From: Spirochaetota bacterium
GTDB lineage: Bacteria > Spirochaetota > Brachyspiria > Brachyspirales > JACRPF01
DNA length: 64,000 nucleotides
Assembly (NCBI GenBank): GCA_038043445.1
Contig: JBBTBY010000027.1
Span: 56,153 to 120,152, forward strand
Direction: 5' to 3'
This document shows, piece by piece, positions 4,093 through 62,508 of the stretch (position 1 is its first letter; every line of letters begins with the position of its first letter). The notes beneath the pieces are model-generated. The model made no database searches, was not told the DNA's origin, and worked only from the letters and a program-made list of their open reading frames with translations. The translations under genes were made by a program, and so were the position numbers.

Positions 4093-5079
4093 TCACGAGC
4101 CGAGCGAGTCGATAAGCTCTTTCTGCGTGAGCGTCGCCGTTCCGCGTTTGCCTACGACGACACCCGCCGCGTAGTTCGCGATGAACGCTGCGTCGAGGAA
4201 CGAGAGCTTCGCCGCAAGCCCCATGGCGAGCGCAGCAATGACGGTATCGCCCGCGCCGGAAACATCGTACACCGCTTTTGCTTTTGTCGGGATGAAGAAC
4301 GGTGTCTTCCCTTTTATCTCATCGGAGAATATCGCCATGCCCTGCGGTCCGAGCGTTATCATGAGATGCGGCATGTCAAGTGAATCCTTGATGTGCCATC
4401 CAAGTTTTGCGATCGCTTCCTTCGATGATACATCGATCTCCCGGTGTGCGCCCTCGGATGCTTCCTTGAGATTGGGCGTCATCGAAGTGATGCCGTTGTA
4501 GAGCGGAAAGTGTTTTATCGACGGATCGGCGAGCACGAACTTTTTTTTCTTTTTCGCCGTACGCATGATATGGTCGATGGAATCGCGCGTGATGACGCCC
4601 TTCGCATAATCGGAGATGATGATGCCGTCGTAATCGTCCAGATGCCGGCTTACGTACGCTTCTACCGCCATGCGCGCTTCCGCGCTGACAGGCGACATGT
4701 TCTCATGGTCGATGCGCACCACCTGCTGCGTACCGGCGATGATGCGCGTTTTCGTTATCGTAGGCCGCGCCGTATCGATGATGATGCCGTCCGGCGATAT
4801 TCCCGAGCGCTCCATATCCGAGACGATGTGTTCGGCCTCGCGGTCTTTGCCGATGATGCCGACGAGCCCCGCTTTCCCGCCGAGGGCACGGATATTACGC
4901 GCAACATTTCCTGCGCCGCCGAGAAAGCTCGTTTCGTTCTTCACATGGACGACGGGTACCGGCGCTTCCGGTGAGATGCGAACAACATCGCCGTAGACGA
5001 AACGGTCGAGCATGATATCGCCGATGACGAGGACGGCTGTCTTTGACAGGCGGGGTATCGAGGTGCGGTAATTGCGCAT
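4093..5079 (-). CDS. hldA: D-glycero-beta-D-manno-heptose-7-phosphate kinase (RfaE/HldE domain I, PfkB family)
   Basis: Strong match to HldE kinase domain: 'AVLVIGDIMLDRFVYGDVVRISPEAPVPVV...GGAGNVARNIRALGG' and the C-terminal 'DVSGAGDTVIAALA' PfkB motif. The internal Met start avoids overlap with the upstream gene. Kinase domain only, no adenylyltransferase half. Confidence 0.85.
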   Translation of the reverse strand: MRNYRTSIPRLSKTAVLVIGDIMLDRFVYGDVVRISPEAPVPVVHVKNETSFLGGAGNVARNIRALGGKAGLVGIIGKDREAEHIVSDMERSGISPDGIIIDTARPTITKTRIIAGTQQVVRIDHENMSPVSAEARMAVEAYVSRHLDDYDGIIISDYAKGVITRDSIDHIMRTAKKKKKFVLADPSIKHFPLYNGITSMTPNLKEASEGAHREIDVSSKEAIAKLGWHIKDSLDMPHLMITLGPQGMAIFSDEIKGKTPFFIPTKAKAVYDVSGAGDTVIAALAMGLAAKLSFLDAAFIANYAAGVVVGKRGTATLTQKELIDSLGS

Positions 5080-15337: not shown

Positions 15338-16305
15338 AAAAGAAAATCGATAGAAGGACCGTGGAGACCGTGGGCGGGCAGGCCGTCATTGAGGGCGTCA
15401 TGCTCCGTGATAAGATGCATTATGCGGTGGCGGTGCGCCGGGAGAAGGGCGATATCGTGACCAAGAAGGAAGCGATAGTGAGCGCGGCTTCCAAGTATAC
15501 GCTTTTCAAGCTGCCGTTCCTCCGGGGCATGCTCAACTTTTTCGAGCAGCTGAAGCTCGGATACTCTATCCTCACGTATTCCGCTGATGAGGCCATGACC
15601 GAGGAAGAGCGTAAGAAGGAAGCGGCGAAGAAAAAAAAGGGGAACGGCGATTGGGTGCTTACCATCGCGCTCATTCTTTCGCTCGTGTTCGCGATAGCAC
15701 TTTTCAAGGCATTGCCCTTCGTGCTCACCGTGCTCCTCGGCGGCCTTTTCAATTCCAAGAACATGGCCGTCGACCATCCCATTGTTTTCAACAGCATAGC
15801 CGGCGTCATCAAGCTCCTTGTGTTCTTCTTTTATCTTCTCGCCATGTCGCTCATGAAGGACATGCGCCGTATGTTCCAGTATCACGGGGCCGAGCATAAG
15901 GTCGCCAATGCGTACGAAGCGGGGGAGAAAATATCGCCGAAGACAGTGAAGCGATTCCCCGTCGTTCATCCGCGCTGCGGGACGACTTTCATCTTTCTCG
16001 TGCTTGCAGTAGGCGTTGTCGTCTACATCGCCATGCAGCCGCTCATCAACAGCCTGCCGGGCTTCCGTACAATGGGTAAATTCCAGAGCAATATCGCGAT
16101 ACTGGCGATACAGATAGGCATGCTGCCTTTCATCGCCGGTATTTCCTACGAACTTCTCAAGCTCGCGTTCCGTTTCGAGAAGAATTTCGTCCTGCAGGCG
16201 GCGATCTTCCCGGGGCTGTTGTTCCAGCGTCTGACGACGAAAGAGCCCGATCAAAAGCAGATCGAGGTCGCCATTGCCTCCTTCGAGAAGCTCAAAGGCG
16301 CATGA
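15334..16305 (+). CDS. DUF1385 domain protein (YqhQ-like)
   Basis: 'TVGGQAVIEGVMLRD' N-terminal hallmark, several TM helices. ATGA overlap with the thyX stop. Confidence 0.7.
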   Translation: MKKKIDRRTVETVGGQAVIEGVMLRDKMHYAVAVRREKGDIVTKKEAIVSAASKYTLFKLPFLRGMLNFFEQLKLGYSILTYSADEAMTEEERKKEAAKKKKGNGDWVLTIALILSLVFAIALFKALPFVLTVLLGGLFNSKNMAVDHPIVFNSIAGVIKLLVFFFYLLAMSLMKDMRRMFQYHGAEHKVANAYEAGEKISPKTVKRFPVVHPRCGTTFIFLVLAVGVVVYIAMQPLINSLPGFRTMGKFQSNIAILAIQIGMLPFIAGISYELLKLAFRFEKNFVLQAAIFPGLLFQRLTTKEPDQKQIEVAIASFEKLKGA

Positions 16306-17159
16306 GGCTTTTTCTCATTGCGGTCGCTGCCTCGCTTTCCCTGTGGGCGGCGGACGTCCCGGTGCGGTTGTACTCCATCGGCGTAAGCGCGGCGCATCCC
16401 TCGATACCGGCAAATCCCGAACTGCCATCGCTCATCGAAGAGCTTTTTCAGACAACGACATCGGTGAATGTGCCTGAGGAGTCGGTATCATTCCTCACCG
16501 GTCCCTTCGCGCGTGCGCAATTCATAAAGAAATTCACGGCAAGGACCATAGCCGCCGACGGCGTCGTGGTACTCTATCTGAACACCTATGCGCTTCGCGG
16601 CAAAGACGGCATTCTCCTCGCAGCGTCGGACAGCGTGCTTTCCAATACGGCTTCATTCCTCCCGCTTGCCGATGTGCTCTCATTCACTCCGCGCGCGCTT
16701 GTTCTCATACTCGATACGCCCGTTTCCAATGTGTCACCGCTTATCCCCGTGAGCGATGCGTTCGTTGCTGCCGCATGCGATGCGCTCCTTGGGAAGATAC
16801 CTCATTCCATCATACGGAATGCCGCCGGCGGGAACGCGTTCATACGGAGCATGGTGGGTAATTTCAGTATCCGCGTCGGTACCGATACGAAAGGCATTGA
16901 CGGAACGGTCACGGCCGGGGAGTTCATCGGAGCACTGCCGAAGGCCGAGACGACAGCGAACACGCTCGGTGATATGAGCAATGCCGTTATCGCGTCCTAT
17001 CAGTGGGGGAGCGGGTCAGTGTCATTGAGCACCAATCGCTTCCCCGTGCGGCGAGCGGTGCTTACGAGGAATTTCGTCGTGTACCGGCGAGCGGTGAACA
17101 CGAATGCCGACGCTTCCTATACGATAGCGACGAATGTGTCGCAGGGGAAGTGGAAGTAG
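16302..17159 (+). CDS. Secreted hypothetical protein
   Basis: Signal peptide 'MRLFLIAVAASLSLWAAD'. ATGA overlap with the upstream stop. No recognisable domain. Confidence 0.45.
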   Translation: MRLFLIAVAASLSLWAADVPVRLYSIGVSAAHPSIPANPELPSLIEELFQTTTSVNVPEESVSFLTGPFARAQFIKKFTARTIAADGVVVLYLNTYALRGKDGILLAASDSVLSNTASFLPLADVLSFTPRALVLILDTPVSNVSPLIPVSDAFVAAACDALLGKIPHSIIRNAAGGNAFIRSMVGNFSIRVGTDTKGIDGTVTAGEFIGALPKAETTANTLGDMSNAVIASYQWGSGSVSLSTNRFPVRRAVLTRNFVVYRRAVNTNADASYTIATNVSQGKWK

Positions 17160-17167
17160 GGGGGGCA

Positions 17168-17248
17168 ACCCCTATCCCCGCCTCTTTCCACCCGTGGCGG
17201 CTTTGCCGTCAGCTGCGCCAAAGGCGCACGTCTGAGAAGGGAAAGGGG
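17168..17248 (+). repeat. Left inverted repeat (IR-L) flanking the TA cassette
   Basis: ~81 nt starting 'acccctatcccc...ccacccgtggcgg...gctgcgccaaaggcgcacgtctgagaagggaaagggg'. It matches the reverse complement of 18592-18675 with roughly 5 mismatches and 2 indels. Confidence 0.8.
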
Positions 17249-17354
17249 AGAGTAACCCCGATACACGCGACTCTATAAATTTTGTTGTAGAATAATATGA
17301 TTGGTATATACTACGGGCATAGATTGCGAATAGTTTTTTACGCGAGGACGCTCG

Positions 17355-17525
17355 ATGCAGAATTTGCTCAACGAATTGACAGCATTGCTCTCCAAAGATG
17401 AACGCCTCGCGGCAGACGGCAAACTCCTCAAGAATAAAGTCATAGAGCTCGCACTAGGAATGGACGCCGATTATAAGGTTTCGGGAGCGGATAAGAAATT
17501 GAATAAGTTTTTTTACACAAAATAG
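17355..17525 (+). pseudogene. 56-aa ORF resembling the N-terminus of type III / type IIG R-M Mod-like methyltransferases (probable gene fragment)
   Basis: 'MQNLLNELTALLSKDERLAADGKLLKNKVIELALGMDADYKVSGADKKLNKFFYTK'. My recollection is that Mod N-termini look like '...LLEKDERL...GVLLKNKIVELALKLD...'. It lies in an AT-rich stretch and lacks the rest of the gene. Confidence 0.3.
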
Positions 17526-17540
17526 CGGAAGGAGGCTTTT

Positions 17541-17786
17541 ATGCGCTTGACCATCAACATCCCCGACAGCGCCTTTTCAAGCATATGGGTAACGCCGGAA
17601 GAATATGTGAAAGAGATGGAAAAAGCTGCGACAGTAAAATGGTATGAGATGCGGAAGATCACGCAGGACAAGGCCGCCGAAATATGCGGGGTGACCCGCG
17701 CCGAGTTCATTAAAGTCTTAAGTGAGTATAAAGTTTCAGTGCTACAGGACGACGAGACCTCTTTGCATGAGGAATTGGATGAGTAA
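17541..17786 (+). CDS. UPF0175 family antitoxin-like protein
   Basis: 81 aa, partner of the downstream DUF3368 gene. GGAGG RBS. It overlaps the toxin start by 8 nt (ATGAGTAA). Confidence 0.65.
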   Translation: MRLTINIPDSAFSSIWVTPEEYVKEMEKAATVKWYEMRKITQDKAAEICGVTRAEFIKVLSEYKVSVLQDDETSLHEELDE

Positions 17787-18258
17787 CGAGATCGTCCTCA
17801 ATGCCTCGCCGATAATACTCTTTTCCAAAACGGGGTATTTTCATGTTCTGCGGAAATTGTTCGATAAAATGTATATTCCGCGTGTCGTGGTGCAGGAAAT
17901 AGCCGTCGATGCTTCGAATGAAACAGCAACTGTATTGAAAGAAGACGGCATTGTCGTGCATTGCAACACGCAGAATAATGATAAAGTTATTTCATGGGAT
18001 CTCGGTATTGGAGAAACCGGCGTAATTTCGTTTGCTTTGGCGAATCCCGCCGTTCGTCCTGTGCTGGGTGACGCGGAAGCGAAGGCGTGCTGCCTGTCAT
18101 TGGGGATCAAACCACTCGGTACCGGATCGGTATTGATCCTGGCGAAACGTGCCGGGCTGTTACCGTCCGTAAAAACGGTGCTGCTTGAGATGCGTTCGAA
18201 GGGAATGTGGATCTCGGATGCGGTTGTCGATTCTATTTCCTCAAAAGCGGGGGGATAA
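17779..18258 (+). CDS. DUF3368 (PIN-like) putative toxin / nucleic-acid-binding protein
   Basis: 'MSNEIVLNASPIILFSKTGYFHVLRKLFDKMYIPRVVVQEI' fits the DUF3368 N-terminus. This is a canonical UPF0175/DUF3368 pair. Confidence 0.65.
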   Translation: MSNEIVLNASPIILFSKTGYFHVLRKLFDKMYIPRVVVQEIAVDASNETATVLKEDGIVVHCNTQNNDKVISWDLGIGETGVISFALANPAVRPVLGDAEAKACCLSLGIKPLGTGSVLILAKRAGLLPSVKTVLLEMRSKGMWISDAVVDSISSKAGG

Positions 18259-18428
18259 TGCCTCAAACTCTTGAACAGGAGATAACGACCTGTGTAAGGC
18301 ACGAAAAGTCATTGCCCGAAACGCCGAAACATATCCGCGACAATCTCAATTCTGCCTTTGATCTCAGACCGTATCAGCACGAAGCGTTCGGGCGTTGTCT
18401 GCGGCATGTGTTCCACTGCGAAGTGTGA
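18258..18428 (+). pseudogene. N-terminal fragment of an SF2 helicase / ResIII-like restriction subunit
   Basis: 56 aa ending '...NSAFDLRPYQHEAFGRCL'; 'LRPYQxEA' is an SF2 motif. It is followed by a stop with no helicase body, and its TAATG start overlaps the toxin stop. Confidence 0.3.
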
Positions 18429-18591
18429 ACACGCCGCTGTAGCGGGTTTTTTATCCTGCGCAATGAAGAATTGACCCGCTGCAGGGAAGAAATCGACCGC
18501 TGTAACAAGCAAATGGTTCGCATCACACAGCAACAATGGTCATTCAGAATAATACATTATTTACGATACATTCTATGTTCAAAACAAGCGA

Positions 18592-18675
18592 GCCCCTTTC
18601 CCTTCCTAGACGTGCGCCTTTGGCGCAGCTGGCGGCAATGCCGCCACGGGTGGAAAGGGGCCGGGGGATAGGGGT
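18592..18675 (-). repeat. Right inverted repeat (IR-R) flanking the TA cassette
   Basis: Reverse complement aligns to 17168-17248 at ~90% identity by eye. It abuts the stop of the DUF327 gene. Confidence 0.8.
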
Positions 18676-18679: not shown

Positions 18680-19126
18680 TCACGACATCACATCCACGAC
18701 AAGCCCTTTCAGCCGTATGATCTTATTCGTCACCGCAATGCGGTCCTTCTGTGTCTTGCGGACGAGCCGATAGAGCGCGTCCAGTTCCGTATTGATGACC
18801 TTGACGATCTCATACTGCTTTGTGCGCGAGAGGCCGACTTTCTTGAGACGGTACGCATCGGTGGAGACGCGTTTGGTGAGCTCGCGTATGAGGTCGCGGA
18901 AACGCTGATACTGTTCGAGCGACGGTTCGCGGTCGAGGGCATCGCCGGCAGTGTCTATTTCGCGCTTAAGGTCATCGAGCGATAATGAGAATTCTTCGAA
19001 TACGACCGCTTCCTGCTTTTCGAGCGCCGCACGGAAATCGGCGGAGCCTGTTTTCGATGATGTCGCGGATGGTTTCTTCCGTTCATTGATGCGGCGCTGC
19101 TGTGAGAATGCATCATCGACACGCAT
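18680..19126 (-). CDS. YaaR/DUF327 family protein
   Basis: The C-terminal half 'KQYEIVKVINTELDALYRLVRKTQKDRIAVTNKIIRLKGLVVDV' parallels B. subtilis YaaR '...KIYKLVEKIDEKLLGLTD...LLNLVGEIQGLLINI'. Confidence 0.55.
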   Translation of the reverse strand: MRVDDAFSQQRRINERKKPSATSSKTGSADFRAALEKQEAVVFEEFSLSLDDLKREIDTAGDALDREPSLEQYQRFRDLIRELTKRVSTDAYRLKKVGLSRTKQYEIVKVINTELDALYRLVRKTQKDRIAVTNKIIRLKGLVVDVMS

Positions 19127-35096: not shown

Positions 35097-35471
35097 ATGG
35101 ACAAGGTGGTTCACTTCGAGATCCCGTTCGACAACAAGGACCGCGCCTCGAAATTCTATGCTTCGATCTTCGGGTGGGAGCTCATGGATATTCCGGAGAT
35201 GTCATACGTCATGGTGCATGCCGCAGAAACGGGCCCGGATAATATGGTCGCGGAGAAAGGCGCCATCAACGGCGGGATGTTCCCCCGGGAGAAAGAGGCC
35301 AAGGCTCCTATCGTGGTCATCGGCGTTGCATCTATCGATGAAACGATAAAGAAAGTGGTCGCCGCGGGCGGAAAAGTGGTAACGCCCAAGCAGCCTATTC
35401 CCAATGGTTCGTATGCACGGGTGGCGGACTGTGAGGGGAATGTGATAGGTCTCGCGGACAGTTCTAAATAA
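35097..35471 (+). CDS. VOC/glyoxalase-family protein
   Basis: 124 aa; 'HFEIPFDN...FYASIFGWEL' beta-alpha-beta-beta-beta glyoxalase-like. Confidence 0.55.
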   Translation: MDKVVHFEIPFDNKDRASKFYASIFGWELMDIPEMSYVMVHAAETGPDNMVAEKGAINGGMFPREKEAKAPIVVIGVASIDETIKKVVAAGGKVVTPKQPIPNGSYARVADCEGNVIGLADSSK

Positions 35472-35596
35472 ATATTTGCGCTGTAGTGTAATTAAGAGAA
35501 GAAAGGATGTACCCGGATTCCCGGATCAATCGGATTTTGTTGACGATGTAATCCTGCTCGTCCTGTCGATGCAAATCGCCATCCCATAGCGGCTCT

Positions 35597-35629
35597 GCCG
35601 CCGGGCTGCGCCTTTTGGCGCACGCATGC
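35597..35629 (+). repeat. Third copy of the palindromic core of the TA-cassette inverted repeat
   Basis: 'tgccgccgggctgcgccttttggcgcacgcatg' compared with IR-L 'tgccgtcagctgcgccaaaggcgcacgtctg'. Shared GCTGCGCC-N3-4-GGCGCACG core. Confidence 0.55.
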
Positions 35630-35960: not shown

Positions 35961-36584
35961 TTATTTTACAAATACTAAAACGACACACCACGCCGCCGAC
36001 AGGAGCGCCGCGAACGCAAGCCGCGGCTTCTCTCTCTTCATCACATATTTGCGGATGAGGATACAGATGATGCCGGAGAACGCCGCAGCGGCTGAGATGA
36101 TGGCGAGGAGCTCGAGTCCGAGCGTTGCGCCCGCGGCCATCCCGATAGCCGCATCGCCGAACCCCATTTTTTCTTTGAAGCCGAAATAGATGCCGAGATA
36201 GAGCACGGAGGCGAACGCGAGGCCGAACACGCTCACGGTGAACATCGGCGTGGTTGAGTGGCTGAGCAGATAGCGCATGAGGAACGCATACGGGAAAAGC
36301 GCGTAGAGTATCGGATGGACATGGAGCTTCGTTGCGTCGGTATAGATGACGATCAATAGGACAGTGACCATCGGAATGGAAAGAAGGAGCATCGGGGTGT
36401 TGAAAAGCGCTATCGATAAAAATACGCCGAATGCCGCCCCTGAGAGCATGAGAAAGGGGCGGGCATTCAGCGCGAACAACTTTCGAGCAGGATGATTGTA
36501 CTTCTCGCCGATAACGAACGCGAAATATCCGACGATGGGAGCTGCAATGAACGCGATACCGATCGGCAGAAGCGATACTGTCAT
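35961..36584 (-). CDS. A24-family prepilin peptidase-like membrane protein (peptidase domain only)
   Basis: 207 aa polytopic. 'MGFGDAAIGMAAG' resembles the catalytic Asp-containing G-G-D motif of PilD/CpaA. No N-methyltransferase domain. Confidence 0.5.
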   Translation of the reverse strand: MTVSLLPIGIAFIAAPIVGYFAFVIGEKYNHPARKLFALNARPFLMLSGAAFGVFLSIALFNTPMLLLSIPMVTVLLIVIYTDATKLHVHPILYALFPYAFLMRYLLSHSTTPMFTVSVFGLAFASVLYLGIYFGFKEKMGFGDAAIGMAAGATLGLELLAIISAAAAFSGIICILIRKYVMKREKPRLAFAALLSAAWCVVLVFVK

Positions 36585-52447: not shown

Positions 52448-52510
52448 TTCGGTGGAAAACCACATCGACCTAGACGGCTCATTCTCCGGGACGCTCACGG
52501 GGGGATCATA

Positions 52511-53662
52511 ATGCAGAGAGCTCATGGGTACGCGTTTCGGGCCATGTCGTCGTTCGTCCGGATGCTCGTTTTTACTTTTTGCCTCGCCGACTGTTTCGCA
52601 CTTGAGGTCGGGGTCAATATGATCAGCGTCGGGAACGAGTATGCCAACCCCGAGTTCCAGGATGAAAAAATACTGCCATTCCTCGCTATGCTCAAATCGG
52701 AAGGGTTCGAGCGCGTGAGCTTTCGTGTCACCTGGTCGCGCATGGAAGTCACCGAGGGGGTGTACAATGAGGCATACATTAAGAACCTCCGGCGGCTTTA
52801 CCACGCTGCGGAGAAGGCAGGACTCAAGGCATTGCTCGATTTTCACACGCTTTTCAAGCGGCAGGTGTATGCGTGCCCGGCGTGGGTATCGAATTATACC
52901 GATGTGAGGACAGGCGGACCGGGCGTCCACAGCGTCATCATGACCGTACGCCATCCCGCGGTAGGAAAGCGTTATATCGATATGCAGCGGCACGTGGCGA
53001 AGGCCCTTGCCGGATGCGGCGCTATCGATTCCGTATCGGTTATGAATGAGCCGTTCACCCTCGAATGGGCAAAGCCCGACGCAATGCGCGCCGAGCAGGC
53101 CGCGCTTACGACGTATCTCTGTCGAGCCGCGAGAGAGCTCAAAGAGACTGTGCCGCGCTGGAAGACCACCGTGCGCTTCTGCATGCCCTACAGCCCCTGG
53201 GCGCTGGACGATACCAAGCGCTTCGGCATCGAGGAACTCATGGGGGCGCTGGATATCTTCTCCCTCAATAACTATCTGGACCCGGCGAACCCCGCCGATA
53301 CCCGTCCGCTGAAAGGAACACCTTCGGGGTCGTGGGTTACGTTCGCCGAGACCGCACGCCGCTGTCACGCAGCCGGCAAGGGGTTCTGGGTCACGGAGTT
53401 CGGTTGCCCCGTGGATGGCGAGGTGAATGATGAGGGCTCGGGAATGAAGGTGCCGCCTGGCGGACAGGCCCGTTATTACGATGCTTTTTTCGCTCGGCTG
53501 TATGCCATGGAATATCAACCTCAGTCGGCGCTGGCGTGGGTGATGAGCCTCGGGGCGGCGGGGAGATCATTGGATAGCTACGCCCTTTGGGATCGCGTAA
53601 GCGCATCGTTCACGGATGGGGGCAAGGCGCTCGTACGACATGCGAACGTTGGGGGAAAGTAG
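52511..53662 (+). CDS. Glycoside hydrolase family 5
   Basis: 'VSVMNEPF' (NEP acid/base) and 'GFWVTEFG' (nucleophile). Signal peptide. Confidence 0.7.
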   Translation: MQRAHGYAFRAMSSFVRMLVFTFCLADCFALEVGVNMISVGNEYANPEFQDEKILPFLAMLKSEGFERVSFRVTWSRMEVTEGVYNEAYIKNLRRLYHAAEKAGLKALLDFHTLFKRQVYACPAWVSNYTDVRTGGPGVHSVIMTVRHPAVGKRYIDMQRHVAKALAGCGAIDSVSVMNEPFTLEWAKPDAMRAEQAALTTYLCRAARELKETVPRWKTTVRFCMPYSPWALDDTKRFGIEELMGALDIFSLNNYLDPANPADTRPLKGTPSGSWVTFAETARRCHAAGKGFWVTEFGCPVDGEVNDEGSGMKVPPGGQARYYDAFFARLYAMEYQPQSALAWVMSLGAAGRSLDSYALWDRVSASFTDGGKALVRHANVGGK

Positions 53663-53722
53663 TCGATAGCATACCGCAGATGCATACCGTCCGACCGATG
53701 CTATCCGTGCTCTCTACCGCAT

Positions 53723-55363
53723 TCAATTCCCGCGCACACCGGCAGCGCCGATGCACATGACGCGGAACTCATTGCCGGTGCTCAGCGGATTCTTCTCAGC
53801 GAGCACCTCAATGAGGATACGATGCATGCCGCCCTTTCCCGGATCGAGCATTATCATACGCCGATACCCGCCCCAGGTCTGATCGAACCATGCATCTGCG
53901 ATCGTCGGTTCTCCACCATCGATGGATATCTTCGCTTTCCCCATGGGGCCGCGTATCACCCAGAATGAAAGGAATATCCGTTCGCCCGACATCTCTATCT
54001 CCAGGACGCTCCCCGGCTTGACCGTCCTCAGGCATTTCATATCCTGCGGCGATTCGAGCGCCCATCCTTCATTGACGACGGGTGTGATGGCGTCCGCTTC
54101 GATGAGCTTCGTGAACTGATACATATCGGTGAGGAGCGGTGCGGGGAATTCGCTGCCGCTGCCGGAATCCGGCGCCGCGCGAAGACGATCGAGCATTTCG
54201 CCGAGGAGCTTTCCCGCATACGCATGACCGCGGTCGTTCGGATGTATATTGTCCGGACTGATATCCTTCCATGCGATGCGTTTTGCCTCGATCTCGGGCC
54301 ACAGCAGATCGCGGTAGCTGACCATGGGCAGTCCGTAATGCGCCCCGATTTTGCTCTGCCATTCCTGTGCATTATCGCCTGATTCCTTCACCATGAACAT
54401 GAGGAGCACGCCGGGCTTTGACGGATGTGTGAGTATCCGGCGTATGACGCCCTCATACGATTCGGCGCGCTCCTGTGTGTTCATGTCGTTCACGGCGTAT
54501 TCAACGACGATGCAGTCCGGGTTCTTGGAGAGGAGATCGCGTTCAACGCGGAGCGCTCCGTAGTCCGATGATGTCGCGCCGATGCCGGCATTCACGAGAA
54601 CGCATTGCGCGTTGGGGAAATGTTCCTGCCACCATTTCAGAAGATGAGCCGCGTAGCGTTTGTCGGCGCTGCTTGCGCTCGCCCCCTGCGTTATCGATCC
54701 CCCGATGACGCCGATGACGGTCTTCTCGCCGCGTGCGGCCTTCGCGAAAATGCGCTTTATCCGCGTATTGTTGCCGTCGCTCACCAGCGCGCGGGAGAAC
54801 CATTCTGTCGGCAGAGGCTTTTTCAGCGCGAGCATCGCCTCTTCGGTCCGTTCATCGCGGACGGCGGTGATGTCATCGAACCATGCCGTTCCCGACCCGT
54901 AGACTATCGTTTTCACCTGCATGGATACCGCTTTCGCCGGTACGGTCACGCGCACGGAATATTTTTTCCAGTCGACCGTGCCCGATACGAGAGAGCTGCC
55001 GGTGTAGGAGATACGCGAGCCTTTCTCGTCGAGGCAGTCGCCGGAGAGATACGCTCCGCGGGTGACGCCGTCGGTCTTAAGGACGAATTCGATGAGATAT
55101 ACCTCGCCCTCGCGCACCGCTATCTTCTGATACGCGTTCGGCCATGCTTTTTTTTCGGTGGGGGGAACGGTTATCCTGAGCGACGCATCACCGGCATATT
55201 TCACCTGCGTATCGCGGGTGAAGAGCGCATCGACATCGCCCGCATCGGTCATCCAGAACGCGTTCGAATCGCCTTCATCAAAACCGCCGTTCGTGAGGGC
55301 GGATCCGGCAGAAAGCGCGGTGGCCGCGAGCATGAGCAGGATAGATACCCTTGTCATCTGCAT
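53723..55363 (-). CDS. SGNH/GDSL-family carbohydrate esterase with N-terminal CBM4/9-like module
   Basis: Signal peptide, 'NGGFDEGDSNAFW' CBM-like start, 'VIGVIGGSITQGA' SGNH block I, 'NDRGH' block V-like. Confidence 0.6.
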   Translation of the reverse strand: MQMTRVSILLMLAATALSAGSALTNGGFDEGDSNAFWMTDAGDVDALFTRDTQVKYAGDASLRITVPPTEKKAWPNAYQKIAVREGEVYLIEFVLKTDGVTRGAYLSGDCLDEKGSRISYTGSSLVSGTVDWKKYSVRVTVPAKAVSMQVKTIVYGSGTAWFDDITAVRDERTEEAMLALKKPLPTEWFSRALVSDGNNTRIKRIFAKAARGEKTVIGVIGGSITQGASASSADKRYAAHLLKWWQEHFPNAQCVLVNAGIGATSSDYGALRVERDLLSKNPDCIVVEYAVNDMNTQERAESYEGVIRRILTHPSKPGVLLMFMVKESGDNAQEWQSKIGAHYGLPMVSYRDLLWPEIEAKRIAWKDISPDNIHPNDRGHAYAGKLLGEMLDRLRAAPDSGSGSEFPAPLLTDMYQFTKLIEADAITPVVNEGWALESPQDMKCLRTVKPGSVLEIEMSGERIFLSFWVIRGPMGKAKISIDGGEPTIADAWFDQTWGGYRRMIMLDPGKGGMHRILIEVLAEKNPLSTGNEFRVMCIGAAGVRGN

Positions 55364-55372
55364 TCGCGTATC

Positions 55373-57208
55373 CTATTTGAAACGAAAGACCGTGATGCTC
55401 TGCCTGGGCACCGTGTCCGTGAATGTTCCGTTCACCGGGCCTTCGGCAATCCCGGCAAGGTCGGTACTTTCCGCGCTTATGGTCTCATCGTAGCGCGCGC
55501 GGCGGTAGCTTTTCGCCGGTATACCGGGGTCTATCGATACCTTCTGATCATTGAAGGCACCGTTCATTACGAACACGATGACGGTGCCGTTCGCGGACGC
55601 GGCGACCGTACGTATAAGGCCCTCGGGTTCATCGCATGATGTGCGCAGTATCTGCGCGCCGCGCGGGCAGTAGCGCGTGAAGAGCGAGTAGGAGAAGTAC
55701 ACGGGTCGGAACTTCCAGTCCTCGTTCTTGAATTCCCAGAGACCGTAATCCATGAAATTGAATCCGGGATAATTGACACGATGCAATGTCCATATCGAAA
55801 GACCGCTCACGCCCTGAGCGAGCGTATCGATGCAGACGTTCCCAATCAAAAGGCCGTTCTCATATGTACGCATGAACCTATTGTTCGTGTCTATTGTGCT
55901 CTTGTCCGACACGCCGAACTCGGTAAGCATTATCTCCTTGTTCTTCCAGTTCGGGTCGAGCTTTTTAAGGATGTCCCAGCGCTCGGCTATATGATCGCCG
56001 AAGGCGGCGACATCGTTCTTCCGTTTATAACTGTGTGTCGAATACATGTCCGCGATGTCATTGAGCGACTTCGCGGTCAAGCGGAACCAGGAGATGTCCG
56101 ATGACTCATCGGCTACGGCCATCCTGATCTGTTTGCGCAGGCCCGCTTTTGCGAGCGCTTCGTGCACGCTGCGGTTCAGTTCGACATATCGTTCGAAGGT
56201 GAACCCTTTTTTCTTGAAGGTGATCTCCGGCTCATTATAGACCATGTAGTATGCAATGCAGGAGTATCCTTTTTTGTTCACGAGGTGATCGAGGAGCGCT
56301 GCCACACCCTTTCCGTGTTTTTCGGCGGGCATTTCCAGGGGGTTCTTCGCTCCCCATTCCACCGTGCAGATGATGACGCGCGAACCGATCTTCTGATGCA
56401 TATCAAGTATTCGGTAGAGGCTCTGCATGCCGTCGCTTGTCCAGTCGAACGTCTCGGCGTCGACCGATGGGTTCCACATGCTCCATGGGACGAACACGCG
56501 CGCTATGCTCATTCCCATGTCCTTCATGCGCCCGAATATGATATCGCCGTCCTCATCGACAACGCCTTTCTTGCGGTTCTCGCTGTTGAAAAGCCACGGA
56601 TCGGTCTCCGCACCGAAGCCGCCGAAGTTCGCGGTAATGACCTCGCCGGTATTTCTGATGCGTACAACGTCCTTTGCGATGGTCGGCGTTGCGCTGTAAT
56701 TTTCCTTGCGCGTAAGCGTTACGTCATCGAACCACACGCTGCCGGAGCCCATGAGAAGGAGCCGGAAGCGCACCTTCACCGTCCCCGCAGGAGTTACGCC
56801 GGACAATGTCATCCGAACCCAGTCATCGCTCGTACCGGACACACCGCCCGCCTGATCATGGGATATCCGCTTCCCCTGCGCATCGAGATACTCGATCGCG
56901 GCGTACGCGATGCCTTTCACCTGATCGACCTTCAGGTAGAAAACGGCCTTATAGTACTGCGCCGGGGCGCCGTCGGGGAATTCCTTCTCGATGGCGGGCC
57001 ACGCCTGCTTCTCGCCTGCCGCCACGCGCATGCGCGCAGATGCCGCGCCGCTGCGGAACACCGCGGTATCCCGCGCGAATTCAACGGTGATGCCGCCATT
57101 GTTGAGAAGCCAGTTCTCTTCAAGCGGCCGTTCGAAACCGCCGTCCGAAAGGATATTCCCGTATGTCAGCATTGAGACCGCCGATAACACGAATAGTATG
57201 TATTTCAT
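55373..57208 (-). CDS. Glycoside hydrolase family 5 with N-terminal CBM4/9-like module
   Basis: 'SDGGFERPLEENW' CBM-like; 'YMVYNEPE' acid/base; 'IMLTEFG' nucleophile. Confidence 0.65.
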   Translation of the reverse strand: MKYILFVLSAVSMLTYGNILSDGGFERPLEENWLLNNGGITVEFARDTAVFRSGAASARMRVAAGEKQAWPAIEKEFPDGAPAQYYKAVFYLKVDQVKGIAYAAIEYLDAQGKRISHDQAGGVSGTSDDWVRMTLSGVTPAGTVKVRFRLLLMGSGSVWFDDVTLTRKENYSATPTIAKDVVRIRNTGEVITANFGGFGAETDPWLFNSENRKKGVVDEDGDIIFGRMKDMGMSIARVFVPWSMWNPSVDAETFDWTSDGMQSLYRILDMHQKIGSRVIICTVEWGAKNPLEMPAEKHGKGVAALLDHLVNKKGYSCIAYYMVYNEPEITFKKKGFTFERYVELNRSVHEALAKAGLRKQIRMAVADESSDISWFRLTAKSLNDIADMYSTHSYKRKNDVAAFGDHIAERWDILKKLDPNWKNKEIMLTEFGVSDKSTIDTNNRFMRTYENGLLIGNVCIDTLAQGVSGLSIWTLHRVNYPGFNFMDYGLWEFKNEDWKFRPVYFSYSLFTRYCPRGAQILRTSCDEPEGLIRTVAASANGTVIVFVMNGAFNDQKVSIDPGIPAKSYRRARYDETISAESTDLAGIAEGPVNGTFTDTVPRQSITVFRFK

Positions 57209-57283
57209 AGGACGCTCCGGTATGATCTTTCATAAGCATACGATATCGCCCGTAAAAATGCCAATGGATATTTTGGTAAATGT

Positions 57284-58141
57284 TTGTTAGAATTGGTAAT
57301 CCCTATGGATACGGTGCACACATTCCTTGCCGGACTGCCGATCGAATGCCGCCGCGTTCTGTTCACGGTATCAGGCGCCTCGATCCGGACGATATCCGCG
57401 GGCGTTTTCCGCGCCCCGCGCGGGCTCCGCACGGTCGACCGGTTCGGCGAATATCGGTTCCTCTATGTGCTTTCCGGCAGCGGAACGTATCGCGACATCC
57501 GTGGTGTGCGTCGTGAACTTGTTCCGGGGAGCATCGTCCACCGCAAGCCGGGGCTTAAACACTCGATATCCCGGCGGACATCCGAACCGTGGATCGATTT
57601 CTATTTCACGCTTCCCTCGGCGATATATCAGTTCCTCGCGGCCAACGGATTCCTCCCGGATACCGATGTATCCGTGCCGGTGAAGAGCGCGGCGCTTGCC
57701 GCTGTCGGGACTTTTCTCCGCCGAATGCGGGGTGCTGCGATACCGATACGCCATCTTGGGGAGCTCTGTCACATGCTTGCATCACTCAATGAGTGCACTG
57801 CGGACGTGCCGAGGACACGCATCGAGCGTATCGTCGATGATGCCTGCGATGAACTTACGGGAGCGCCGAAAGGGGTGCCGAACATACCCGCAATAGCGGC
57901 GAGGCTTGGTATCGGGTACGAGACGTTCCGTAAGGAATTCAAGCGCATCACCGGGCATTCGCCGTATGCATACCATGTCCGCAGCACTATTGAACGCGCA
58001 CAGCGGCTCTTCGCCGAAGAGCGGATGAACGCGAGCGAGGCGGCGCGTGCGCTCGGCTACCCCGATCTCTATTCGTTCGTCAAGCAGTTCAAGCGATATA
58101 CCGGCGTAACACCGACGCAGTTCAGACGCTCGGTGCAATGA
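57284..58141 (+). CDS. AraC-family transcriptional regulator
   Basis: C-terminal 'IAARLGIGYETFRKEFKRITGHSPYAYHVRSTIERAQRLF...LGYPDLYSFVKQFKRYTGVTPTQFR'. The start may instead be the internal Met at 57305. Confidence 0.7.
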   Translation: MLELVIPMDTVHTFLAGLPIECRRVLFTVSGASIRTISAGVFRAPRGLRTVDRFGEYRFLYVLSGSGTYRDIRGVRRELVPGSIVHRKPGLKHSISRRTSEPWIDFYFTLPSAIYQFLAANGFLPDTDVSVPVKSAALAAVGTFLRRMRGAAIPIRHLGELCHMLASLNECTADVPRTRIERIVDDACDELTGAPKGVPNIPAIAARLGIGYETFRKEFKRITGHSPYAYHVRSTIERAQRLFAEERMNASEAARALGYPDLYSFVKQFKRYTGVTPTQFRRSVQ

Positions 58142-58162
58142 ACATCCGCCAGGAGGCATAGC

Positions 58163-59242
58163 ATGAGCTCACCCATCCATACTCTCGATGAGAATATGCG
58201 TACCGCGGATGTCGATACGAACGGCATACGCTGGCATCGTATCGATGAAGCCCCGTTCCGCGTGTCCGGCCTTGCGTGGTACGACACAGAAAAACGATTT
58301 CGCCGCATGCCGCTTACACCATCGCCGGGCATTCCGTCGGCGGTACGCTCGCTTTCCGATTGCACGTCAGGGGCGCAGCTTCAGTTCCATACCGAGAGCG
58401 CACGTGTCGCGGTTCGTGTGGCGCTTGCCGCACCGGCGGGCATGGACCATATGCCCTCGACGGGGCAATGCGGTCTCGACTGCTATATCGGCGAGGTGGG
58501 ATCCATGCGTTTTGCCGGCGTCACGCGCATCCCGTACGGCGCATCGAATTATGAAGTGCCGGTGCTTACCGCGAGCGCCCGGGAACGCCGCCGTATTACG
58601 CTCAATTTTCCGCTCTATCAGGGGGTGAAGTCGATCGCCATCGGCATCGAGGACGGCACTCGGATAGAGGCCCCGAAGGCGTATACTGTTGACGGGCGTA
58701 TCATCGTCTATGGTACATCGATAACGCAGGGAGGATGCGCAGCGCGTCCGGGGATGTGCTATACGAACATCCTGAGCAGACGCATCGATGCGGAGTTCAT
58801 CAATCTCGGTTTTTCCGGGAATGGACGCGGTGAACGTGAGGTAGCGGACGTGATCGCGCAGATAGAACGCCCGCGTTTATTCGTTCTCGACTATGAGGCG
58901 AATTGCGTTTCGGCGGAGCTGTACCGTACGACACTTCCTGCTTTCATTGGAACGTTGCGCGCGAAACATCCGGCAACGCCGATACTTGTCATATCGCGGA
59001 TACGATACGCGCATGAGAATATCAGTCCGACCAGGGACAGGGATGAGCGTCTCGTTTTTCAGCGCACGCTTGTTGAAGAGCTTCGCACACACGGGGATGC
59101 GAACATCCATTTTCTTGACGGTTCACCGCTCCTCGGGGATGATTTCGATGAATGCACGGTGGATGGCGTCCATCCCACCGATCTCGGTTTTCTGCGAATG
59201 GCGGACGGCATTGAACCGTCACTGCGGCGGATACTTGCGTGA
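58163..59242 (+). CDS. SGNH-hydrolase-like esterase
   Basis: 'IIVYGTSITQGG' block I, 'FSGNGRGE' block II-like, 'DGVHPTDLG' block V (DxxH). Confidence 0.55.
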   Translation: MSSPIHTLDENMRTADVDTNGIRWHRIDEAPFRVSGLAWYDTEKRFRRMPLTPSPGIPSAVRSLSDCTSGAQLQFHTESARVAVRVALAAPAGMDHMPSTGQCGLDCYIGEVGSMRFAGVTRIPYGASNYEVPVLTASARERRRITLNFPLYQGVKSIAIGIEDGTRIEAPKAYTVDGRIIVYGTSITQGGCAARPGMCYTNILSRRIDAEFINLGFSGNGRGEREVADVIAQIERPRLFVLDYEANCVSAELYRTTLPAFIGTLRAKHPATPILVISRIRYAHENISPTRDRDERLVFQRTLVEELRTHGDANIHFLDGSPLLGDDFDECTVDGVHPTDLGFLRMADGIEPSLRRILA

Positions 59243-59264
59243 GGATTTGGGTCGATGTATTTTA

Positions 59265-59293
59265 TTGACAAACGATGTCGCACAGATTATGAT
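59265..59293 (+). promoter_or_regulatory. Candidate sigma70 promoter for the TPM-domain gene
   Basis: TTGACA (59265-59270), 17-nt spacer, TATGAT (59288-59293). Confidence 0.45.
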
Positions 59294-59319
59294 GTGTTAT
59301 CTCGCCTAAGGACATCGTT

Positions 59320-60030
59320 ATGAATATGATCCTCCGGTCGCTCATCGTCGCGGTCGTATCATCGTGCTCGTTGTTCCCCGCAACGTATCCGGTGTATGAC
59401 GGCTATGTGACCGACTCGGCAGGCATCCTTGACGGCGCGTATCATGATTATCTCGAGAAACTTCTCACGGCGCTCGATACGCGAACGACGGCGCAGATCG
59501 CGGTTGCGATCATTCCGTCGCTCGAAGGGGAGGACCTCGCGTCATACAATGTCGAGTTGTTCAGGAAGTGGAACGTGGGCCGTGCGGGCAAGGACAACGG
59601 CATACTCTTTCTCATTGCCGTAAAGGAACGGCGCATGCGCATTCAGACCGGACACGGGCTGAAGGACGCATTGCCCGATGCTGCTGCTAAGAACATCCTC
59701 CACAATACCGTCCGGCCGCTGTTCAAGGCGTCGAAGATGACCGAGGGGATCACTGATGGGACCGAAGCCATTGCCGACGCTGCGGCGAAAAAATACGGCA
59801 TTACGCGCACTAGTCTCGGTGTTGAGCGTCCGTCACGGCAGGCAGCGGATATGGTGCCTGTGGAGACGACGATATCCGATGGTGCGCCGAAGCACGGTAA
59901 CGGCACTCCCTGGATACTCATCGTCCTCGTCATAGCTGTTACGATCGTCATCGTGGTCATCATACGGCGTTATTCGGGAAAAGCGGCGGAACGAATGAGG
60001 GCTGGCAGGGGGAACAGCATGGATCGCTGA
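59320..60030 (+). CDS. TPM-domain protein (YgcG/TLP18.3-like phosphatase domain) with C-terminal TM anchor
   Basis: 'YVTDSAGILDGAYHDYLEKLL...TTAQIAVAII...NGILFLIAVKERRMRIQTGHGL' is the TPM pattern. C-terminal 'WILIVLVIAVTIVIVVII' TM. Confidence 0.7.
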   Translation: MNMILRSLIVAVVSSCSLFPATYPVYDGYVTDSAGILDGAYHDYLEKLLTALDTRTTAQIAVAIIPSLEGEDLASYNVELFRKWNVGRAGKDNGILFLIAVKERRMRIQTGHGLKDALPDAAAKNILHNTVRPLFKASKMTEGITDGTEAIADAAAKKYGITRTSLGVERPSRQAADMVPVETTISDGAPKHGNGTPWILIVLVIAVTIVIVVIIRRYSGKAAERMRAGRGNSMDR

Positions 60031-60131
60031 TTACAGCAACAGATATTCATTGCGGGCTCGCAAAGAACTGCCCGTCTTGTCGGGAACGGGTGCTCTATGC
60101 TTTGCCGAATGTGTAAGAAAATGGGGGCAAT

Positions 60132-60443
60132 ATGCATCTGATACAGATCCTTCTTCCGTTGTACGACAACGCGAGGAGAAAATTCCCGCACAGGGAATAT
60201 GCACAGGTCGCCAACGATCTTGCAGAGCGCTTCGGCGGAATTACGACCTATCGCCGCTCCCCCGCTGCGGGGCTTTGGAAAGAGACGCCGTCGATGTCCA
60301 CCATACATGACGATATAGTTATCTATGAGGTGATGACCGAGACCGTTGATACGGCATGGTGGCAGGAGTACAGAAAAGCACTTTCCATCAGGTTCAGGCA
60401 GGGCCTGCTTATTGTCAGGGCAAGCGAGATAACCATTCTATAA
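60132..60443 (+). CDS. Hypothetical protein (103 aa)
   Basis: ORF with no recognised motif; followed by a T7 tract. Confidence 0.3.
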   Translation: MHLIQILLPLYDNARRKFPHREYAQVANDLAERFGGITTYRRSPAAGLWKETPSMSTIHDDIVIYEVMTETVDTAWWQEYRKALSIRFRQGLLIVRASEITIL

Positions 60444-60450
60444 CACATAT

Positions 60451-60654
60451 CTATCTCAGCGCGGGGTGGCGTTTTTTTCTGCGCCTGTCCTTCGGGTTCA
60501 TATAATCTTTTAACGCTTCATTTACCACCCAATCGAACGATCGTCTGTTCGCCGCCGCCTCGAGCACTATCCGTTCCTTCATGTCCGCGGAGACCTGTAT
60601 ACTGCACGTTATCGGAGCGGTTTCGTCAGAAGTGTATCGTGCTTTCGATCTCAT
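60451..60654 (-). CDS. Ribbon-helix-helix (CopG/Arc-like) small DNA-binding protein
   Basis: 'ITCSIQVSADMKERIVLEAAANRRSFDWVVNEALKDYM' shows a beta-alpha-alpha RHH pattern. Confidence 0.45.
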   Translation of the reverse strand: MRSKARYTSDETAPITCSIQVSADMKERIVLEAAANRRSFDWVVNEALKDYMNPKDRRRKKRHPALR

Positions 60655-60699
60655 ATCGTGCTCCGTGCCGTTGACGCCGGGGGTCAGCGGGGTTTCGTA

Positions 60700-61356
60700 T
60701 CATTCCTCTCCGATGCCTGCTGTCTGTTCGGTGAATGCGCATTGTTCATTCATCGCTTCGCGGAGCACTCGTTTGATGTTCCAGAACAGCTGCTTCGTTT
60801 TTCCACGAGGGAGACTGTTCGCTGCGGCGACTGGATCGAGCTCTGTCTGTACCAATATCGCTTTTGCGTATCGTGAGCCGATGCCGGCGATGATGTTCTC
60901 CTTGACGAGAAAGTCATGTATCGTGGATGTCGCTGTCCTCAGGCGCCGGCGGAACATTGCGGTGTTGAATCGCTTGGTGAGCGGGTCGACGCCGATGTCA
61001 GGCAGCGGCGTTTCATCTTTGTTCACATAGAGGATGCGCGGCGCGCGGCTTTTTTCCGCCAGGTACAACAGAGATCGTGATGTCCTATACGTGATGCGCG
61101 CATCGGGGATGGCGAGTGGTTGAGGACTGAAATAGATGCGTGTGTGCGCCGAGGGAAGTACAATGAGGGCATCGCGCGAGAGCTGCAGATAGACCGCTTT
61201 CCCGTAGCGGGAGATATCGATGATCTTCTGTCCCCGCACACGAGCGGCATTCTCGCCGATAAGCGGATCGTGTACGATAACATCCTCGATATAGGCGTTC
61301 AATATCTCGCCGGCAAAACGCTCGGCGAGCTGCTGGGCTTCAGGCAGCTCGGGCAT
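60700..61356 (-). CDS. Fpg/Nei-family DNA glycosylase lacking the C-terminal zinc finger
   Basis: Starts 'MPELPEAQ' (catalytic Pro2, Glu3). H2TH region 'IHDFLVKENIIAGIGSRYAKAILVQTELDP' matches Fpg '[30 protein letters not shown]'. Ends ~50 aa early with no CxxC...CxxC. Confidence 0.65.
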   Translation of the reverse strand: MPELPEAQQLAERFAGEILNAYIEDVIVHDPLIGENAARVRGQKIIDISRYGKAVYLQLSRDALIVLPSAHTRIYFSPQPLAIPDARITYRTSRSLLYLAEKSRAPRILYVNKDETPLPDIGVDPLTKRFNTAMFRRRLRTATSTIHDFLVKENIIAGIGSRYAKAILVQTELDPVAAANSLPRGKTKQLFWNIKRVLREAMNEQCAFTEQTAGIGEE

Positions 61357-61366
61357 ACATGCCTCC

Positions 61367-62125
61367 TTACACCTGTGCATCGGAAGAATTCGTTTTTCCA
61401 TCCTCGGGTTTCGGCCTGCCGGGAATATCCGTGTCCCTGCCGAACGAGATCGAATCTGAAGAAAAGCGTTCGTGACGTACGTGTGAGAACCGGCCGCTGT
61501 CGCCGGAAGATGCGATCACTGCATGCGCGGTATCCGTTTCGTAAAACGCATCGATGGGGATCCAGTCGTCGTCACGGCTGTCTGAGAAGGACGCGCGGGC
61601 GGTGTGTATCACCCGGGAGCGCGCGAGCACGATAAAGGTGCCGTTCGCGGCATGAAATCCGAGCTCCCCGAAAAAATAATTATCCGGCATGCCGAGCATG
61701 ATATACCAGCTGCCGTAGTGGCAGGCGATCTCGATATCCGCATGGATGAATTTCAGATCTTGATTGCCGCTGTCGAGAAGCCGATACATGTGTATGTGCA
61801 GCTGCTGCGCATCGGTGGCATGCCGCGATCGGTCCTCATCGGAAATATCCCAGTAGGCAAAACACCATTCAGGGTCACGTTCCATGAGAGTGAGGCACGT
61901 CTCGTTGTATCGGTCCGGCAACTCCCTCGCGTGGTCGGCAAAATCGCTCACGATGGGCGATACGGAGAGCGCTCCGGCGAACGCGGAGGAAACGACCACG
62001 AGCGGGGGCGGCGGTTGTTCCTTTTCTATCGCAGAGTGCGGCGGTCGTTTTTTGAGAAGAGCCTTATTCTGGGCCGTTGATACAGTGCTCACGGCAGCGG
62101 CCTTCTTTTTTTTCGGCGAGGCCAT
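61367..62125 (-). CDS. DUF4912-domain protein
   Basis: N-terminal Lys/Pro-rich low-complexity region, then 'CLTLMERDPEWCFAYWDIS', which fits the DUF4912 'DPYWLFAYWEI' hallmark. Confidence 0.5.
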   Translation of the reverse strand: MASPKKKKAAAVSTVSTAQNKALLKKRPPHSAIEKEQPPPPLVVVSSAFAGALSVSPIVSDFADHARELPDRYNETCLTLMERDPEWCFAYWDISDEDRSRHATDAQQLHIHMYRLLDSGNQDLKFIHADIEIACHYGSWYIMLGMPDNYFFGELGFHAANGTFIVLARSRVIHTARASFSDSRDDDWIPIDAFYETDTAHAVIASSGDSGRFSHVRHERFSSDSISFGRDTDIPGRPKPEDGKTNSSDAQV

Positions 62126-62307: not shown

Positions 62308-62508
62308 GTGAGCTCTCCTGGCGATTATTCTGTCGTCTTCTAAGATATTGAGTTGCAACAAATGTACCAAGGCATACCACGATTAATACGGTGGATATGT
62401 TCCATACAGATATTCAATTAATAACGATGAAATAGTATAGGGAAGCGTTCTTATGGATTCACACATGGTGAAAACCCCTGTTCGATTGCATAACAGTTGT
62501 GCATTGTA

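Follow-up and report, generated by a model that had tools for sequence, protein, structure and literature searches.

Inverted palindromic repeats bracket a decayed type III restriction-modification operon and an intact candidate toxin-antitoxin pair in a groundwater spirochaete

The 64-kb stretch of Spirochaetota DNA analysed here (the window) carries, at positions 17168-18675, a cassette that lies between two convergent chromosomal genes and is bounded on each side by an inverted copy of a palindromic repeat. The left flanking gene (16302..17159, + strand; 285 aa, GC 0.579), taken from the list of open reading frames (ORFs), matched no family in Pfam or NCBIfam, and its context is identical on every contig that encodes the exact protein. 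The right flanking gene (18680..19126, − strand) encodes a 148-aa member of the DUF327/YaaR family (Pfam PF03885, E=5.9e-25), named YaaR family protein by NCBI. The plus-strand gene ends at 17159 and the stop codon of the minus-strand gene occupies 18680-18682; the repeat units start 8 nt after the former and 4 nt after the latter, at the 3′ ends of convergent genes, where the original prediction had placed them.

The left arm of the cassette (17168..17250, + strand) is an 83-nt unit, ACCCCTATCCCC...GGGAAAGGGGAG, which we designate type A. The right arm (18593..18675, − strand) is a unit of the same type, inverted with respect to the left one, with its ACCCC end toward the DUF327 stop. A repeat search found inverted arms of 73 nt with 92% identity (17176-17248 and 18593-18665) and an adjoining exact 12-nt inverted block (17168-17179 and 18664-18675). 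The repeats had been predicted to span about 85 nt, and alignment with MAFFT agrees, giving 5 mismatches and one 2-nt indel over ~83 nt; BLAST gave 91.6% identity over 83 nt (E ~1e-25). In the window the invariant 22-mer core GCTGCGCCAAAGGCGCACGTCT is present at two places and no more, whereas 100 dinucleotide shuffles contained no copy, so the similarity of the arms is not due to chance. Each arm is predicted to fold into a 9-bp outer stem around two inner hairpins, GGCGGC-TTT-GCCGCC and GCGCC-AAA-GGCGC. Predicted RNA folding energies were -44 to -48 kcal/mol, with z-scores against shuffled sequences of only -1.7 to -2.4; the dyad symmetry noticed earlier corresponds to a conserved palindromic fold that is only modestly more stable than shuffled sequence. 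An Rfam search at permissive and gathering thresholds returned no relevant family for the arms, and the window holds no tRNA or tmRNA genes. Between the arms lie 1342 nt with a GC content of 0.469, compared with a mean of 0.557 (sd 0.022) for equal-sized windows across the 64 kb. This is the lowest-GC stretch of its size in the window, in keeping with the low GC that had been predicted.

The genes of the interior identify the cargo. The first, mod′ (17355..17525, + strand; 56 codons), is a remnant of a type III methyltransferase gene. BLASTP pairs its first 38 residues with the first 38 of a plasmid methyltransferase of 627 aa (55% identity, E=2e-11) and its residues 37-54 with residues 606-623 of the same protein (E=0.005). 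It is thus a mod gene that lost codons ~39-605 in frame and kept its own start and stop. The gene for the plasmid methyltransferase is followed by one for a DEAD/DEAH helicase, the mod-res layout of type III restriction-modification (R-M) systems. The corresponding res′ (18258..18392, + strand) keeps only about the first 45 codons of a gene for a type III restriction helicase/endonuclease, as judged by BLASTP and PADLOC: from Met1 it aligns to the N terminus of a Thioclava DEAD/DEAH helicase (33% identity, E=2e-7; BLASTP), and it matches positions 10-48 of 873 in the PADLOC model REase_III (E=0.017). Its ORF continues beyond the homology to a stop at 18428, and the break falls exactly at the start of a non-coding module described below. 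The cassette had been thought to hold two N-terminal gene fragments; res′ is one, whereas mod′ retains 38 N-terminal and ~18 C-terminal residues on either side of an internal deletion. Neither an intact mod nor an intact res is present, and the type III R-M genes here are best regarded, from their sequences, as remnants and not as members of a functional system.

Between these remnants are two intact genes. A UPF0175 antitoxin of 81 aa (17541..17786, + strand) matches Pfam PF03683 over its full length (E=1.6e-20) and the PADLOC PDC-S70 antitoxin models (E ~1e-6). A PIN-like DUF3368 toxin of 159 aa (17779..18258, + strand) matches Pfam PF11848 (E=9.5e-12) and PADLOC PDC-S70 over positions 1-158 of 161 (E=7e-44). 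The two genes overlap by 8 nt, the toxin gene beginning before the antitoxin stop, and the toxin stop in turn shares nucleotides with the ATG of res′ (TAATG), an operon-type junction. Two small overlapping genes with full-length family matches and the antitoxin upstream have the make-up of a type II toxin-antitoxin (TA) system, and the families are those named in the original prediction. PDC-S70 is a PIN-domain candidate recovered by “guilt-by-embedding” in known defence operons and is experimentally unvalidated (PMC12988326; bioRxiv 10.1101/2024.01.29.577857).

Our pair resembles PDC-S70 in its families, in the antitoxin-first, overlapping gene order and in the methyltransferase/helicase-nuclease context of its nearest homologues; it differs in that the host operon is destroyed, the pair alone being intact, and in its identity of 41% to the nearest homologues found. 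The nearest toxin homologues found are encoded together with UPF0175, with a large gene upstream of them and a gene for a PLD/ResIII/SNF2 helicase-nuclease on the other side. Modification and restriction genes with a TA pair nested between them are thus a native architecture, in agreement with the “embedded” origin of PDC-S70 (PMC12988326; bioRxiv 10.1101/2024.01.29.577857). We conclude that the islet is a decayed type III R-M operon of which only the embedded TA pair is intact. The earlier proposal of a decayed element that kept its addiction module thus finds its counterpart in the defence-operon remnants around the pair. The contigs carrying those nearest homologues, L020 (1-6324) and L021 (99-4512), share a conserved block of five genes, in the order 624-aa protein without a Pfam match, UPF0175, DUF3368, Bro-N protein and 931-aa PLD-nuclease/SNF2-ResIII helicase. 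With its embedded accessory genes, the block looks like a defence operon that is as yet uncharacterised.

The repeats at the two ends of the cassette are members of a dispersed family. A metagenome scan for the core pattern hit six contigs of one sample, all with the same ~4x coverage, and profile and termini searches then added the variant units. One of these is the window's own left arm; the other five (L008-L012), metagenome contigs from the 0.1-µm fraction of groundwater well H41 at Hainich (Germany), have flanks unrelated to the window. Look-ups of the exact proteins place the window locus itself in metagenomes of that fraction, likewise at about 4x coverage. Eleven units were found at six loci of one metagenomic population: two in the window and, elsewhere, five full ones and four that are shorter or variant. 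Identity among full type A copies is 86-95% (the left arm is 86-94% identical to those elsewhere, and the right arm 95% identical to the type A unit of L010), with sharp unit boundaries, (AACGC)ACCCCTATCCCCC...GGGAAAGGGGAG(CGCTT). Across the family, units measure 43-112 nt and have the common termini ACCCC(T)A(T)CCCC...GGGRAAGGGGAG. Type B “mini” units, which consist of the outer stems only, are found at L009 2134-2176 (+) and L008 4874-4922 (−), and type C units at L010 10673-10784 (−, 112 nt) and L008 4117-4174 (−, 58 nt). Types B and C have only their termini in common with type A in sequence; the outer 9-bp stem and the termini are conserved in all three types, while the interiors have been deleted or replaced. 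Solo units exist at L011, L012 and L008_C. Units are mostly extragenic, and six of them start 0-24 nt after a stop codon in the sense orientation. The suggestion that the cassette ends are repeats of repetitive extragenic palindromic (REP) type or of MITE (miniature inverted-repeat transposable element) type was borne out by this copy-number check, with multiple dispersed copies, some of them solo at unrelated loci. The family is a new one, resembling the REP elements, bacterial interspersed mosaic elements (BIMEs) and REP doublets forming hairpins (REPINs), or MITEs.

The family has a narrow distribution. Scanning 185,579 species-representative genomes, which apparently do not include the source genome, for the 20-nt core gave only two matches, neither similar past the core and both attributable to chance; the core had no match in IMG/VR, and the whole cassette no similarity in PLSDB or INPHARED. 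No unit occurs at the loci of relatives (L014-L019) or in the ~10 kb past the right end of the window. A six-frame translation of the consensus repeat, searched against 5.8 billion proteins, yielded nothing at E<=1e-3, and the ~30-aa matches were very short. Short-read contigs tend to end inside the arms, as expected from a multi-copy repeat; L004 extends from one arm to the other, and the end of L027 lies 80 nt beyond the stop codon.

Three units lie inside a single ORF on L008 (3811-5799, − strand), which would encode 662 aa with a class III nucleotide cyclase ahead of a Ser/Thr kinase, and all three (4784-4870, 4874-4922 and 4117-4174) are in frame and without stops. The A and B units, which form a pair, break into the C-terminal part of the cyclase domain, and solved cyclases align up to residue ~169 of ~203, just before the pair. 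The type C mini unit encodes PLPPTPSPLSQGSERGEGE and lies where, compared with StkP/PknB, ~47 extra residues are inserted between kinase subdomains. The ORF stops abruptly inside the kinase domain and may be a pseudogene or an artefact of assembly at 4x coverage.

Units tend to occur in inverted pairs. At four of the six loci two units face each other with their ACCCC ends outward: the window (types A/A, interior 1342 nt), L010 (A/C, 461 nt), L009 (B/A, 72 nt) and L008 (A/B, 3 nt), the window pair being the largest. The pairs of the window and of L010 lie between convergent genes, those of L010 being an SMP-30-like gene and lepA. The AT-rich leader 5′ of the mod remnant in the window (17251..17354, + strand) is not common to other bracketed loci (BLAST against the L010 and L009 interiors); a promoter is presumed there, and a consensus promoter scan of the leader returned nothing.

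It is conceivable that the bracket is mechanistically meaningless, two solo units having independently entered the new spacers that were made when the islet landed between convergent genes. Solo units are known at three places, units generally sit in short intergenic spacers right after stop codons, and the arms are not each other's closest relatives, the right arm being 95% identical to the L010 unit and 89% to the left arm. Yet the outward orientation is kept in 4/4 pairs despite differing partner subtypes, and the right unit adjoins, without a break, a module that is found again beside a unit at L010. Moreover, ~74 kb of contiguous genome hold just two units, both at the edges of the cassette. 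This abutment and the constant geometry of the pairs make an accidental bracket unlikely, and we consider coincidence quite improbable.

The module in question (18393..18592, + strand) is non-coding and common to the window and L010, with 85% identity over 211 nt (window 18393-18603, L010 10476-10685). The homology starts where res′ loses its similarity to Res and runs on into the termini of the adjacent unit. The cassette's right end is thus a ~290-nt entity, the 211-nt module plus the unit, that is shared by the two loci. Since the module recurs by the inward unit end at a second bracketed locus, it belongs to the repeat-bounded element and not to the R-M operon. It contains an array with a 21-nt phase, an (A)CCGCTG core and a single orientation (L010 10404-10613, window 18405-18530), and an AT-rich stretch of ~55 nt (window 18531-18585) lies between this array and the unit. 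In L010 ten consecutive 21-nt units are in phase, with exact CCGCTG at 10433, 10454, 10475, 10496, 10559 and 10580; the window retains the distal half. For the six in-phase CCGCTG copies of L010 the expectation is 0.05, and 20,000 shuffles never gave more than two; the cluster in the module is the only one in the window. The array, whose units are highly degenerate, went undetected by Tandem Repeats Finder and was revealed by phase analysis and shuffling.

Window and L010 differ in the module by 31 substitutions, distributed 9/12/9 over codon positions, with more non-synonymous than synonymous changes and stops in all six frames. The idea that the module is a decayed 3′ end of res or a small protein gene was rejected on these grounds: there is no codon bias, every frame has stops, and tblastn gave no match with the Thioclava Res and Mod proteins. 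Because the hexamer is exact while its surroundings vary, recognition at the DNA or RNA level is favoured over a coding heptad. The two available module sequences show 0-2 covarying double changes. A 15-bp hairpin spans about 18401-18452, including a nearby T6 run. Within it, a small hairpin at 18434-18445, CCGC-TGTA-GCGG followed by T6, corresponds to CCGC-TACA-GCGG at L010 10517-10528, the loop being exactly reverse-complemented between the two loci. The reversed loop seems to be the signature of hairpin- or cruciform-mediated inversion (template switching) and not of two independent substitutions. In layout the module recalls iterons next to an unwinding element, a parC-type centromere or the multi-site ends bound by transposases. 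No rep, par, tnp or integrase genes or remnants were found at the module or the cassette, and neither has DNA similarity in PLSDB, INPHARED or IMG/VR.

Given the position of the units in 3′ untranslated regions, their stem-loops might instead terminate transcription or protect mRNAs, insulating the host genes from the islet. Enterobacterial REP elements, which provide a precedent, terminate transcription or protect mRNAs; the six units immediately 3′ of stop codons in the sense orientation and the low predicted folding energies would suit such a role. However, the hairpins lack a following T-tract, a terminator scan flagged neither arm, the fold z-scores are modest, compensatory changes were not found, and Rfam gave no match. 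Relatives, furthermore, manage with spacers of 13-18 nt and no hairpin, and three units lie inside an ORF. A functional RNA therefore seems very improbable as the explanation of the pair, and the terminator idea of the original prediction is weak, since no T-tract follows the hairpins. Considered as intrinsic terminators in their own right, the arms were rejected on the same scan, the sequence after them not being T-rich; the only hairpin near a T6 run is that of the module (18401-18445).

Comparison with relatives bears on how the islet arrived. In L014-L017, where the DUF327 homologue is 89-91% identical, the gene order upstream is preserved (LPG_synthase_TM, methyltransferase), and only 13-18 nt separate the DUF327 stop from that of a convergent gene for a membrane protein of at least 634 aa, with no repeat and no cassette (spacers read at L014 5256-5274 and L017 568-581). 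This membrane protein is not the product of the window's 285-aa gene and was not found in the DNA examined for this organism; in a relative with 62% identity, DUF327 has a different, co-directional neighbour. The absence of cassette and repeat from relatives, together with a GC content that is the minimum of the window, argues for a foreign origin of the interior. The synteny breakpoint at the cassette possibly reflects a repeat-associated rearrangement. In a second assembly, GCA_964356905.1, contig CAYHJP010000013.1 is 100% identical to window positions 52509-64000 (11.5 kb); by coordinate arithmetic it starts near ~30.5 kb of the window and so stops short of the cassette. A further contig of 20-50 kb also encodes identical DUF327 and toxin proteins, and the filled state is probably present in GCA_964356905.1 too.

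Foreign DNA could also have come to lie between units that were already there. The inverted pair would then be a pre-existing BIME-like structure, a hotspot into which a plasmid or integrative element inserted and was later eroded, leaving R-M, TA and, by an AT-rich stretch, a 21-nt array resembling iterons or a centromere as its maintenance functions. TA and R-M systems are classic plasmid-maintenance cargo, and the cargo here is typical in that respect; near-empty pairs exist (L008 and L009, with interiors of 3-72 nt), the module has the appearance of iterons, or of a partition site, beside an AT-rich region and is found between units at two loci, and target-site duplications are absent around units and pairs. 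Against this, neither genes nor remnants of the rep, par or integrase kind were found, and PLSDB, INPHARED and IMG/VR contain no similar plasmid or phage. Typical iterons are 17-22 bp long, and unlike them the 21-nt units here conserve just a 6-7-nt core. Two independent integrations into pairs would, in addition, require site-specificity, and nothing points to such a mechanism. We regard insertion into an existing pair as rather doubtful.

Given the repeat family and its pairing rule, the identities of the genes and the deletion junctions, the GC anomaly and the absence from relatives, we consider it probable, at roughly 60%, that the window pair of REP/BIME- or MITE-like units bounds a non-autonomous element composed of its own 211-nt module and an eroded R-M/TA operon, the TA pair having been retained because its loss is costly. 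The usual arrangement of the family is an outward-facing inverted pair a few nucleotides after stop codons. A repeat-bounded element, now non-autonomous, would have carried or captured the R-M/TA operon, and later deletions would have destroyed mod and res. The TA pair would have survived since its loss was penalised, either through post-segregational killing or through the loss of a defence benefit. That the pair was mobile as a unit is inferred, as are this order of events and this reason for the retention of the TA pair.

Several results weigh against such an element. No target-site duplication surrounds any single unit or pair (14-nt flanks of 11 units), and the gene lists of the loci examined contain no transposase, REP-associated tyrosine transposase (RAYT) or integrase; neither these nor any polymorphism or clean empty site supports transposition as a unit. 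All contigs that encode the exact flanking or cassette proteins are in the filled state. An empty-site comparison had been proposed at the outset, and close relatives indeed lack both repeat and cassette at the 3′ end of the DUF327 gene; their convergent neighbour is a different one, however, which puts the cassette at a break in synteny and precludes the reconstruction of a clean empty site. BLAST revealed no mutual similarity between the left-hand interiors of the bracketed loci. The family is lineage-specific, and its extra copies are assigned to one genome by sample and equal coverage only. Type A copies, which are very similar to each other, contain no compensatory pairs, so that covariation supports no RNA-level function of the units. 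Finally, the TA activity and defence role of the pair are those of a candidate, as PDC-S70 itself is.

The repeat-bounded element that we favour can be set beside several known systems, and its components are of kinds already known: palindromic repeat families, genes bracketed by MITEs or REPs, and TA pairs surviving in decayed defence islands. With REP, BIME and REPIN elements the units share GC-rich imperfect palindromes, dispersed copies mostly just 3′ of genes and the absence of target-site duplication; heterotypic inverted pairs with variable linkers are found in BIMEs as Y/Z REPs, and a gene bracketed by inverted units recalls a REPtron. Unlike REPs, which measure 20-40 nt, the units here are 43-112 nt long and compound, with an outer stem and two inner hairpins. 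They lack the conserved 5′ GTAG, having instead the termini ACCCCTATCCCC and GGGAAAGGGGAG extended by AACGC or ACACTC. Some copies are intragenic, one pair holds 1.3 kb of unrelated cargo in place of a RAYT gene, and the host phylum is Spirochaetota. The mobiliser of proteobacterial REPs, the Y1 transposase RAYT, is missing from the gene lists of the loci examined.

MITEs are likewise short, non-coding and multi-copy, with terminal inverted repeats and size variants produced by internal deletion. In MITE-flanked composites, such as integron mobilisation units, Acinetobacter class 1 integrons and Neisseria Correia elements, two copies bracket passenger genes and potentially mobilise them. The present family differs from these in the absence of target-site duplications, in having no known cognate insertion sequence with the same termini and in arms that are just ~90% identical. 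The three in-frame units of L008 resemble Rickettsia palindromic elements (RPEs), which occur as palindromes in frame inside protein genes, although sequence and host are unrelated, most copies here are intergenic and the L008 ORF was read from a 4x metagenome assembly. Direct repeats at about two helical turns (21 nt), in one orientation and beside an AT-rich stretch, are features of the iteron arrays of theta-replicating plasmids and of centromere-like parC arrays; the array described here differs in conserving only a 6-7-nt core, in having no rep or par gene nearby and in its chromosomal position between repeat units. An integron cassette was rejected as a candidate, since the termini mismatch the attC consensus R″ (RYYYAAC) and R′ (GTTRRRY), the arms are inverted and no integrase family is found among the neighbouring genes.

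Features that are unusual against this background are the heterotypic pairs, the cargo within a pair, the 21-nt phased array and the in-frame intragenic copies. The family joins traits that are usually separate, namely BIME-like heterotypic pairs, MITE-like deletion variants, RPE-like in-frame copies and a cargo-enclosing pair. A more far-reaching idea, which we think unlikely, is that the pairs of units are the structured ~85-nt ends of an undescribed, cargo-carrying and duplication-free insertion element of Spirochaetota that ferries defence genes, the array being a platform for a protein encoded elsewhere. Such an element would insert into spacers of a few nucleotides between convergent genes, its cargo would include R-M operons with an embedded TA pair, and the array would bind a recombinase, a replication protein or a partition protein. 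The array hexamer CCGCTG/CAGCGG is asymmetric, of the kind recognised by type III enzymes, and it is pure speculation that an array of it in one orientation is tied to the recognition sequence of the lost enzyme.

More broadly, in an uncultured spirochaete of groundwater, the locus shows how small palindromic repeats interact with defence operons and addiction modules. An R-M system reduced to stubs around an intact nested TA pair is what would be seen if embedded TA or PIN genes were retained selfishly or for defence. If the pair is indeed mobile as a unit, it would constitute a compact vehicle for defence genes, and the 21-nt array would be a practical means of identifying the protein acting on it.

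A weak look-alike of the unit interior lies elsewhere in the window, at 35583-35624 (CGGC-TCT-GCCG ... GCTGCGCC-TTTT-GGCGCACG; nhmmer E=0.04-0.75). It is without the family termini and is located in a spacer of ~490 nt between convergent ORFs (35097-35471, + strand, and 35961-36584, − strand), and it could be either a degenerate relative of the family or an unrelated pair of terminator-like hairpins.

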